In this document: positions 7,745-13,163 of the stretch, piece by piece
How positions within the stretch are numbered: the first letter of the stretch is position 1
Layout of the letters: each line of letters starts with the position of its first letter
IMG/VR virus record: IMGVR_UViG_2526164663_000038
Length of the DNA: 13,163 nt
Source: a virus
Taxonomy: Duplodnaviria > Heunggongvirae > Uroviricota > Caudoviricetes
Strand: one strand, 5' to 3'
Translations under genes and position numbers: made by a program
The notes under the pieces: generated by a model
Seen by the model: only the letters and a program-made list of their open reading frames with translations
The model's database searches: none
Told to the model about the DNA's origin: nothing

Positions 7745-7825
7745 ATTGAATATAAATTATTTTAGATTGCATTGACCTAAAAAAATTATCTTGTAATCTA
7801 AAAATACTTAGATTTAGGAGGTAAA
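7745..7825. promoter_or_regulatory. Divergent immunity promoter/operator region (OR; PR rightward, PRM leftward)
   Basis: AT-rich 81-bp intergenic region between divergent repressor and cro; TTGACC (7772-7777) as candidate PR -35; inverted repeat AATCTA-N8-TAGATT (7795-7814) and extra TAGATT (7764-7769), same half-site as OL. Confidence 0.6.
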
Positions 7826-9581: not shown

Positions 9582-10035
9582 ACAGCAAATCCGGCAGATC
9601 TGCCGTCGGTGCATGGACCGCTGCCGGGCGGGTGAAACGTGGCCTCCGGATCTGGCTGAGTTTGTGGCGTTGATTTCGGAGAGCGGGGCAAATCCATTTG
9701 GCCTGACGGTGGATGCCGTGATGGAGGAATACCGTCGCTGGAGGAATGAATCCTGGCGGTACGACGGGAGTGATAAATACCCGTGGCCACAGCCGGTGCT
9801 GTACCACATTTGCCTCGAGATGCGTTCAAAGGGGATTGAGCGCCAGATGACCGAAGGGGAGTTAAAACGGCTTGTGGAAAGGCAGCTGACGAAATGGGCA
9901 AAGCATGTTGGTAATGGCCTCAGTGTTCCGCCAGTCCGGCGACAACTGGCAGCACCCAAACGCCCGCCAGGGCCAACGCCAATTGAATTGCTGAAACAGG
10001 AATATGAGCGCCGGAAGGCGGCCGGTTTTGTCTGA
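9493..10035 (+). CDS. Replication protein P-like helicase loader
   Basis: MTEQQ...[15 protein letters not shown]...KYPW...[10 protein letters not shown]...[14 protein letters not shown] parallels lambda P MEQV...PFLPSPGQFVAWCRE...SYPW...AHYWLVTNLY...LTDAELRRKAADEL (recollection). Start uncertain: in-frame candidates at 9373, 9493, 9574; overlaps the 3' end of the O-like gene. Confidence 0.65.
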
Positions 10036-11986: not shown

Positions 11987-12550
11987 ATGACTGAATTAAC
12001 CAAAGAATGGCTACAGTACACGATTACCGGAATTGAGTCATCACGGGATGAAATACCGTTCGGACTCGATGAAGATCAAAACAACATGCTTACCGCATTA
12101 AAAATTGCACTGGCATCACTGGCATCAGTATCGGATGAACGGGCAGCCTATGAATTATTTATGGAGAAGCGTTTCGGGGAATCTGTAGATCGCCGCAGAG
12201 CAAAAAATGGCGATAGAGAATACATGGCATGGGATATGGCGCTTGGCTGGATTATCTGGTGTCACCGCGCCGCCATGCTTCAGGCTGGAAACTTTCGGGA
12301 AAATAAGGGTTCGTCAACCAATAATTTTCGGATAATCTCGGAAACGTCAACCAACTCTCCGGCAATCCCTGATGAGGTGTTGTCCGCAATCCTGAAGGTC
12401 GCCAGGCTTCGTGCAGATTTCGATGCTTCTGAAGTGGACAGGCGAGGTATCGGTAGTTGTCTGGATGAGGCCGAGCAAGAACTTATCGTTACCATTAACG
12501 AATACGCCAGTCAGATCGCAGTAGAAGCGACACAGGGGGAGAACCAATGA
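11987..12550 (+). CDS. Hypothetical protein (187 aa)
   Basis: Long ORF with protein-like composition; preceded by two hairpins instead of a clear SD; its stop overlaps the start of a 25-codon hydrophobic ORF. Confidence 0.55.
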   Translation: MTELTKEWLQYTITGIESSRDEIPFGLDEDQNNMLTALKIALASLASVSDERAAYELFMEKRFGESVDRRRAKNGDREYMAWDMALGWIIWCHRAAMLQAGNFRENKGSSTNNFRIISETSTNSPAIPDEVLSAILKVARLRADFDASEVDRRGIGSCLDEAEQELIVTINEYASQIAVEATQGENQ

Positions 12551-12624
12551 GCCGGCCAGATGCATTTGCAGGCGTTGCTATAGCTATTGCTTTTCTAGTA
12601 TATGTTATTTGTCGGTGGGGGTAA
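12547..12624 (+). CDS. Putative 25-aa single-helix hydrophobic peptide
   Basis: Not in the track. ATGA overlap with the 187-aa gene stop; MSRPDAFAGVAIAIAFLVYVICRWG. Confidence 0.3.
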   Translation: MSRPDAFAGVAIAIAFLVYVICRWG

Positions 12625-12659
12625 AAACGTTCGCCGGGATTCACACCAAGGGAGGGAAT

Positions 12660-12764
12660 ATGTCGGATGATATTTCACTGGTAATGGAAGGCGCTCTGGC
12701 TGTTATTGCTGTTGTGGGTGTTTACTGCCTGGTTGTGTTTTTGATGGAGCGCCTGGGGAACTGA
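12660..12764 (+). CDS. Putative 34-aa single-helix hydrophobic peptide
   Basis: Not in the track. ATG 12660 preceded by AAGGGAGGG; MSDDISLVMEGALAVIAVVGVYCLVVFLMERLGN. Confidence 0.4.
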   Translation: MSDDISLVMEGALAVIAVVGVYCLVVFLMERLGN

Positions 12765-13007
12765 ATTCATTCCGTATGGGAATTCCCATATCGGGCAAAA
12801 CGGTTTGCTGTAAAGCGAGAGTTAAGTAGAATTGCTGCGGGTGCTTGAGGCTGTCTGCCTCGGGCATGCCACCGTAAGGCAGACAGAGAAAAGCCCCAGT
12901 TAACATTACGCGTCCTGCAAGACGCTTAACATTAATCTGAGGCCCAATCTATGCTTCACAAACGTAGGTTAGCCTCTTACGCGCCGAAAGGCAAGGAGAA
13001 GCAGGTT

Positions 13008-13163
13008 ATGAAGCAGCAAAAGGCGATGTTAATCGCCCTGATCGTCATCTGTTTAACCGTCATAGTGACGGCACTGGTAACGAGGAAAGACCTCTGCGAG
13101 GTACGAATCCGAACCGGCCAGACGGAGGTCGCTGTCTTCACAGCTTACGAACCTGAGGAGTAA
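13008..13163 (+). CDS. hokD: Hok-family type I toxin (51 aa), HokD/RelF-like
   Basis: MKQQKAMLIALIVICLTVIVTALVTRKDLCEVRIRTGQTEVAVFTAYEPEE matches my recollection of E. coli HokD; SD AAGGAG 9 nt upstream; structured leader; in-frame upstream ATG at 12951 gives the 70-codon track ORF. Confidence 0.85.
   Translation: MKQQKAMLIALIVICLTVIVTALVTRKDLCEVRIRTGQTEVAVFTAYEPEE

Follow-up and report, generated by a model that had tools for sequence, protein, structure and literature searches.

A perfect palindrome lies between two small peptide genes and the leader of a hok/sok toxin-antitoxin cassette in a lambdoid prophage of E. coli O157:H7. The question raised by this locus is whether the palindrome is an operator, a recombination site, part of the hok/sok system, a structure that acts in RNA, or a relic with no function. 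The window (the whole stretch of DNA that was analysed, 13,163 nt) comes from a prophage integrated beside tRNA-Ser/mtfA, and its genes are ordered int, exo, dicB, a LexA-family repressor, cro, ydaT, O, P, small ORFs, a 187-aa ORF, pep25, pep34, the palindrome, and hok/sok. Beyond the window, hok/sok is followed by DUF968, rusA, and Q. The features around the palindrome are as follows, where variants A to F are forms of the palindrome in hok loci and variant A is the form in the window:

12547..12624, + strand: pep25, an ORF for a 25-aa hydrophobic peptide (MSRPDAFAGVAIAIAFLVYVICRWG), in ATGA overlap with the stop of the 187-aa ORF
12660..12764, + strand: pep34, an ORF for a 34-aa single-pass hydrophobic peptide (RefSeq WP_001278460), with the palindrome in its 3' untranslated flank
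12758..12774, + strand: conserved left flank GAACTGAATTCATTCCG, containing the pep34 stop TGA (12762-12764) and an 8-bp palindrome TGAATTCA (12762-12769)
12758..12763, + strand: predicted, weak 5' strand of an outer helix, GAACUG, pairing with 12801-12806 in the MFE folds of variants A, B, and C
12771..12795, + strand: extended imperfect hairpin with a 10-bp stem, a U-G wobble, and a single bulged U (12791)
12775..12790, no strand: perfect 16-bp palindrome TATGGGAATTCCCATA, the invariant core in hok-linked variants A-D
12795..12808, no strand: small inverted repeat GCAAA-ACGG-TTTGC, overlapping the hok -35
12801..12806, + strand: 3' strand of the outer helix, CGGUUU, predicted from MFE folds
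12804..12832, + strand: putative hok promoter, with -35 TTTGCT (12804-12809), a 17-nt spacer, and -10 TAGAAT (12827-12832)
12839..13013, + strand: hok mRNA leader and sok region (Rfam RF01794, 114.9 bits, E 2.5e-27)
12951..13163, + strand: mok/hok reading frames (Pfam HOK_GEF 3e-23; annotated hokD; mokW/hokW homology), with the hok ATG at 13009 and the hok stop at the window end

We infer the hok promoter from a TAnnnT hexamer, whose spacing to GCGGGTGCTTGAGG is constant across 74 distinct sequences upstream of hok, together with the TTTGCT found 17 nt upstream of it. Because the RF01794 match sets the hok mRNA 5' end at about 12839-12840, the centre of the palindrome falls at about -57 relative to this end, and 49 nt separate the end of the 16-bp palindrome from it.

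The preliminary description of this DNA, made from the letters alone, had claimed a perfect 14-bp palindrome with imperfect extended arms. The 14-mer, ATGGGAATTCCCAT, does exist at 12776-12789, and the perfect palindrome is in truth two bases longer, a 16-mer at 12775-12790 that encloses both the 14-mer and an EcoRI site. The stop codon of pep34 is separated from the 14-mer by 11 bases and from the 16-mer by 10. The extended arms were confirmed as well: CCG (12772-12774) pairs with CGG (12792-12794) around a bulged T12791, and the outermost pair is a wobble between U12771 and G12795. A search of the window found only one copy of the 14-mer, and related prophages hold homologous perfect forms of 22, 24, and 26 bp.

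By itself, the copy in the window is near chance and without significance. Markov-1 random sequences gave 0.84 expected perfect palindromes of at least 14 bp per 13,163 nt (P(>=1) = 0.57) and 0.21 of at least 16 bp (P(>=1) = 0.19). The window holds four perfect palindromes of at least 14 bp (581-594, 2151-2168, 9592-9605, and 12775-12790) against the 0.84 expected; the one at 2151-2168 is an 18-bp palindrome, GGCAGGGGATCCCCTGCC, within a frameshifted integrase pseudogene. The palindrome upstream of hok is nevertheless not a chance feature, since relatives carry a perfect 24-bp form for which the analytic expectation is 8e-4 per window.

These relatives fall into several variants at the homologous position. 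Variant A, the O157:H7 form in the window, is the most abundant and occurs at >=99% identity in 644 records. Variant B, ACGATATGGGAATTCCCATATCGG, is the commonest form in IMG/VR and is perfect over 22 bp from its C. Variant C, in PPompW-type phages, is perfect over 24 bp (CCGATATGGGAATTCCCATATCGG) and variant D over 26 bp (CCCGATATGGGAATTCCCATATCGGG). Variant E reads CCGATGCGGGACTTCCCACATCGG, and variant F reads CCAATGTGGGAATCCCACATCGG (8 loci) with one central base lost. Comparison of these forms indicates that the palindrome has been conserved by descent and that its ancestral form was a much longer perfect palindrome of 24-26 bp. Variant A is then a slightly decayed copy, derived from the 24-bp form CCGATATGGGAATTCCCATATCGG by a one-base deletion (the A of the left arm). 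At two PPompW-type loci (L371 and L381), unrelated sequence breaks the hok leader after ...GGCTATCTGCCTCG, and the hok cassettes of these loci are probably disrupted.

The alignments of flanking sequence indicate that the palindrome is the core of a portable intergenic unit of about 40 nt, composed of a left flank and the palindrome, that borders one hok/sok subfamily on its left. The consensus of the left flank is AACTGA(TTG)AATTC(A/G)(T/C)TCC, and the flank in the window is homologous to AACTGATTGAATTCGTTCC of variants E and F and of a copy found away from hok (L360). At least four different upstream genes precede the unit, and the usual gap from their stop codons is 10-15 nt. The upstream gene is pep34 in variants A and B (stop 10-11 nt before the palindrome; homologs 91-100% identical in A/B-type loci), a gene ending in ...KLMEL* in variant D (13 nt past the stop), and a gene ending in ...MSL* in variants E and F (15 nt past the stop). 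Variant C, which follows the paa/adfO region (LC567818), is the exception to this spacing. On the right, the palindrome of variants A-C runs directly onto ...AAAACGGTTTGC, and variants D-F have 19 extra nt that resemble the 3' end of a pep25-like ORF (GAGAACATTACCAYCGGGGATAAAA); the remnant of this ORF end that follows the D-F copies measures about 19-28 nt.

In a scan of viral and metagenome collections, the flank-plus-core pattern was almost solely adjacent to hok. The one clear exception was L360, an enterobacterial prophage in which the unit lies about 65 nt past an hkaP-like gene (putative superinfection exclusion); comparison with the hkaP region of HK620 added nothing further on this copy. 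Of 5,426 complete E. coli genomes, about 732 carry the unit linked to the hok promoter, and among the genome matches sampled, those spanning the unit always ran on into the hok promoter.

Of 225 hok loci, 103 have the palindrome and 122 do not. Many prophages, 933W and pPE4 among them, are homologous to the window only from about 12797 onward (AAAACGGTTTGC...). In 933W-type loci a pep25 homolog (...ICRWR*) leads straight into the hok promoter, and in another large group of hok loci a pep34 homolog (...LMDRLSD*) abuts the -35 directly. Because many hok loci, including that of 933W, are without the palindrome, hok/sok does not need it. The palindrome thus matters little to hok/sok biology, as the toxin-antitoxin cassette functions without the element, and the function of hokW-sokW has been demonstrated in Sp5 (PMC8621323).

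Short direct repeats mark the edges of the segment that distinguishes these loci. The 3' end of pep25, GGGTAAAAACG, recurs as GGGCAAAACG at 12793-12802, and such repeats bracket the segment of pep34 plus palindrome that is absent from 933W-type loci. In the window the repeat reads GGGGGTAAAAACG at 12617-12629 and GGGCAAAACG at 12793-12802; in variant B it is exact over 11 bp (GGGTAAAAACG). Either an insertion or a deletion between the two copies could have produced this arrangement, and the region of pep34 and the palindrome is prone to rearrangement. In E. coli O55:H7 TB182A, for example, pep34 is tandemly duplicated (107 bp, GAAT microhomology; L245 1600-1811), and another locus (L092) has a deletion in the left flank.

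A recombination role is one reading, with the palindrome serving as a hotspot or linker for module exchange (homologous or illegitimate) or as the target of a site-specific recombinase. At least five left contexts and three right contexts surround the common core, the 12-2-12 layout is superficially like that of Hin/Gin-type sites, and the rearrangements nearby include the pep34 duplication, the L092 deletion, and the 19-nt difference between A-C and D-F. Against this, the junctions beside the palindrome lie at short direct repeats and none lies within it, the window holds a single copy, and no recombinase co-occurs with the element. Its half-site is also unlike what we take to be the Hin/Gin/Cin (hix/gix) consensus, and a fully symmetric recombination site gives no directionality. 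We consider such a role quite improbable.

The same joints bear on the possibility that the palindrome has no function at all, having arisen once (e.g., by template switching at a recombination joint) and now hitch-hiking with the hok cassette while it slowly decays. The unit lies exactly at a mosaic joint, as the 933W-type homology from 12797 and the bracketing repeats of the GGGTAAAAACG type illustrate, the D-F copies trail the remnant of a pep25-like ORF, and hok loci lacking the unit are common. A stem defect is present in each of the diverged lineages, and perfect symmetry is gone from the O157:H7 form, the most abundant one. All copies are close relatives, and their conservation may be identity by descent. 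A relic would not be expected to have its pairing restored by two-sided changes, as seen at three pairs (see below), or to persist as perfect 24-26 bp forms in many independent prophages with different flanks, and the left flank and core at the non-hok site L360 suggest that the element was retained or moved as a unit. We regard a relic as possible, if somewhat doubtful.

The preliminary description had favored a protein-binding operator or a site of recombination or processing. Processing fits the RNA stem-loop reading that we develop below, recombination found little support even though the element sits at a mosaic joint, and five lines of evidence (half-sites, immunity modules, neighboring genes, spacing, and the loss of a central base) speak against its serving the resident repressor or Cro as an operator. 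The operators between cI and cro (7745-7825) are built from TTAGATT/AATCTAA half-sites, unrelated to the palindrome, and the half-site of the palindrome, TATGGGAA, occurs in the window at a chance rate when up to one mismatch is allowed (12 found, 10.6 expected). Prophages bearing the palindrome have at least three different immunity modules. Upstream DNA of at least 5.5 kb was available for 48 palindrome loci; of these, only two have the CI of the window, both identical to the window, and the Cro of the remaining loci is about 30-36% identical or absent. We rejected a CI/Cro operator on these grounds: unrelated half-sites, the chance rate of TATGGGAA, and no link to immunity type.

Neighboring genes were compared using 533 ORFs from seven representative loci, evaluated across the 103 positive and 122 negative hok loci, and no real case was found of a gene tracking the palindrome within +-8 kb. 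The association test yielded spurious antisense frames overlapping the palindrome and sub-lineage markers such as paa. With no associated gene over the 225 hok loci, a locally encoded cognate binding protein was rejected. The distance from the palindrome centre to +1 is 57 nt in variant A, 58 in B and C, 76 in D and D2, and 77 in E, so that the shift between A-C and D-E is about 1.8 helical turns and out of helical phase. Dyad spacing has been broken twice, by the central base lost in variant F and by the base lost inside one arm in the window. As in lambdoid CI/Cro operators, the element is palindromic DNA of operator-like length in a prophage; unlike them, it has an unrelated sequence, a single copy, no overlap with a promoter, and no co-variation with the immunity module. 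Considered together, this evidence weighs heavily against an operator bound by the resident repressor or Cro, and to a moderate degree against a promoter-linked site for a dimeric protein of any kind. A PurR-like box, GCAAAACGGTTTGC, was also discarded as it is not conserved in variants B and D-F; its central spacing is 2 bp off what we take to be the PurR consensus.

A site for some other protein must be weighed with a further observation, the occurrence of the 24-mer away from hok. A degenerate pattern, CCGATNNGGGANNTCCCNNATCGG, scanned over viral contigs matched 46 loci linked to hok and about 20 that are not (some 16 of them independent), whereas two arm-permuted, composition-matched control palindromes matched 4 and 0 loci. 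The variable positions in the non-hok copies are mostly complementary (GT/AC, GC/GC, AC/GT). These copies belong to three groups. The first group is found within KilA-N-like genes and encodes S-D-M/A-G-I-P-I/A-S, in a protein common to six loci; the genes come from very distant bacteria and phages, with cyanobacteria, Dehalococcoidia, and Betaproteobacteria represented. Copies of CCGATATGGGAATTCCCATATCGG or a palindromic variant in KilA-N-domain genes were seen at L150, L188, L202, L351, L355, and L374 and on plasmid NC_011737.1 (187091-187120), and the gene around the cyanobacterial plasmid copy carries a KilA-N-domain annotation. A second group (L378, L393, L387) consists of unrelated phage CDSs with the 24-mer in frame as ...DMGIP(I/A)SE... 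in acidic or Q-rich low-complexity stretches. The third is intergenic and comes from unrelated viral contigs (L353/L373/L391, L375, L389, L390, L349, L388, L366, and L045/L394), and its copies often lie within longer palindromes (32 and 38 bp) or near a second palindrome or partial half-sites. Comparison of the genes next to the non-hok copies clustered just the KilA-N-like coding set, and the intergenic copies shared no neighbor. The idea that the hok-linked palindrome is a fossil of a KilA-N gene was rejected; the similarity is limited to the palindrome, the flanks are unrelated, and the frame is not open.

The recurrence outside hok loci may reflect coding constraint combined with a large population of phage hairpins, or it may be a real sequence-specific enrichment. 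We give little credence to the stronger proposal that CCGATATGGGAATTCCCATATCGG is no generic hairpin but either a sequence-specific recognition element, common to unrelated phages and bound by some DNA- or RNA-binding factor, or else a mobile palindromic insert of very small size. The scan of the exact 16-mer over 596 Gb of genome contigs is uninformative because its matches in unrelated phyla, at least 120, compare with about 140 estimated by chance. Finding the 24-mer in unrelated phages and also in KilA-N genes warns that an exact-word match to a palindrome cannot be read as homology; though small and unexplained, the enrichment might merit a proper statistical survey.

With these data in hand, a DNA site for a dimeric, sequence-specific protein, supplied by the host or encoded by the phage more than 8 kb away and modulating the hok promoter or acting as a roadblock, appears unlikely. 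Such a site would account for perfection through the centre, which a hairpin does not need, and a length of 24-26 bp upstream of the hok -35 would suit a dimer. The recurrence of the exact 24-mer and close palindromic variants in unrelated viral contigs (about 16 independent loci away from hok, compared with 4 and 0 for the controls) and the extra partial half-sites near some of these copies point the same way. It is harder to reconcile with the difference from CI/Cro operators and the co-occurrence of at least three immunity types, with the lack of a tracking gene within +-8 kb and of a shared neighbor among the non-hok intergenic copies, with the unphased spacing of 57/58 and 76/77 nt, and with the broken dyads of variant F and the window. 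The hok promoter, moreover, works in relatives that lack the palindrome, as for hokW-sokW in Sp5 (PMC8621323).

Known RNA elements offer partial parallels. The palindrome would form a G+C-rich stem-loop of 10-12 bp (-12.8 to -21 kcal/mol), in most contexts 10-15 nt past a stop codon, as a terminator might. The U-tract that had already been reported missing is, however, absent from every copy and lineage on both strands, and a terminator scan of 12300-13163 found 0 terminator-like sites. The sense 3' flanks read GCAAAACGG, GTAAAAACGG, GCGAAAACGG, or GAGAACATT, and the antisense 3' flank reads AATGAATTCAG. Because no copy carries a U-tract, the element is not an intrinsic terminator. It shares with the lambdoid nin terminators (lambda tR2-tR4) a delayed-early site between P and Q and a G+C-containing hairpin after a gene, but not the U-tract that defines them. 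T7 and lambda RNase III hairpins are likewise intercistronic and could leave a protective 3' stem, and variant C has about 20 irregular bp when the predicted outer helix is included. Unlike the largely continuous duplex of about 20 bp typical of RNase III sites, the continuous stem here is 10-12 bp, and about 20 bp is reached only with outer helices that are weak, non-homologous between A-C and D-F, and different among lineages.

The hok/sok elements themselves (leader, tac/fbi, mok, and Sok; RF01794) are adjacent, and the palindrome is nearly always beside hok. It nonetheless lies outside the transcribed hok unit and the Rfam model, which starts at 12839, and its spacing to the promoter varies. 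A part or terminator of Sok RNA was rejected, as sokW is annotated some 100 nt to the right, at about 12889-12959, and a promoter reading out of the palindrome was rejected for either strand for lack of an acceptable -10 hexamer. The many dispersed copies of a REP/BIME/ERIC-like element or MITE were not seen, flank-plus-core being hok-linked at all loci but one. No Rfam family covered the palindrome even at E up to 10. A literature search with its sequence returned only irrelevant eukaryotic matches and no relevant paper, and its position is untreated in the hokW-sokW study (PMC8621323) and in a 2026 preprint on prophage Pas sRNAs (bioRxiv 10.64898/2026.05.13.724894).

Another parallel is with 3' stem-loops that lack a U-tract and protect bacterial mRNAs against 3' exonucleases or mark the processed ends of Rho-dependent or read-through transcripts. 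Like these, the element is stable and self-contained, lies in the sense orientation mostly about 10-15 nt past a stop, and is dispensable for what lies downstream. It differs from them in that the palindrome is perfect including the loop and travels with the downstream hok cassette rather than with one upstream gene.

Evidence for a structure in RNA comes first from folding. Predicted energies were -12.8 kcal/mol for the window and -17.9 and -21.0 kcal/mol for the perfect 24- and 26-bp relatives, and in longer context the z-scores were -5.3 for variant C (24 bp) and -2.5 for the copy in the window. A stable hairpin is retained in all lineages despite sequence change. Over all variants (11 distinct sequences), 94% of cells were paired, and 1 of 11 pairs showed a two-sided change. 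This is stem pair 6/19, where A-U became G-C on both sides in variants E and F. Within the D-F group, two-sided changes occurred at 3 of 16 pairs, in the inner stem and in a closing helix, and the covariation score was 0.256 against 0.187 for shuffles (0 of 500 reached it) and 0.04-0.14 for slid controls. These counts come from 7-11 distinct sequences of about three lineages, with possibly a single event per pair, and related sequences can beat all shuffles without any structure. The closing helix of D-F has 5 bp, with its left strand, C(C/U)G(A/G)U, just past the upstream stop and its right strand reading A(U/C)(C/U)(G/A)G; two of its pairs change on both sides, and it is analogous rather than homologous to the outer helix of A-C. 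The loop positions vary freely (AATT to ACTT in E and to AAT in F), and the three G-C pairs beside the loop never vary. G-U wobbles slightly favor the sense strand (92.9% of cells paired, against about 88% by our count for antisense). We take this evidence for RNA structure as suggestive only.

Several observations pull the other way. Three of the six lineages have one stem defect (the bulge in the window, a C-A in E, and an A-C in F), substitution density in the stem is not clearly below that of the loop, and many hok loci have no hairpin at this position. The palindrome is also perfect through its centre, beyond the needs of a hairpin, and the recurrence of the exact 24-mer in unrelated phages hints at sequence-specific recognition.

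On balance, the likeliest reading is that the palindrome forms an ordinary RNA hairpin between genes, where two modules meet. In rightward transcripts from the early region it would adopt a self-contained stem-loop of 10-12 bp. This stem-loop could act as a barrier to 3' exonucleases or as the end-point of processing for the upstream message (here that of the pep25 and pep34 genes), and it could hold the upstream RNA structurally apart from the elaborately folded hok leader 44 nt further on. Both the transcription of the palindrome and the stabilizing or delimiting of upstream RNA are steps that we infer. As the leading explanation we tentatively put forward a stem-loop in the sense transcript that lacks a U-tract and, located at a mosaic joint, would mark the 3' end of the message upstream or protect that end, and we consider a functionless relic nearly as likely. 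If the hairpin does delimit the upstream message, it would be a simple example of accessory genes insulated from a toxin leader with a critical folding pathway.

Whatever its role, the unit flags a place between P and Q where a mosaic joint recurs in Shiga-toxin-era E. coli prophages, and it helps to delimit a mobile subfamily of hok cassettes and two unstudied small membrane-peptide genes. Neither pep25 nor pep34 matched a Pfam or PHROG family, and pep25 is without RefSeq annotation in strain NE122. A promoter-like match to consensus, TTTACC-17-TATACT, is directed leftward at 12597-12625 on the - strand, antisense to the pep25 ORF; it is a consensus match only. The diverged pep34 homolog ending in ...LMDRLSD* is present in other hok loci, and phage 933W carries a 27-aa pep25 homolog, likewise unannotated, directly upstream of hokW.
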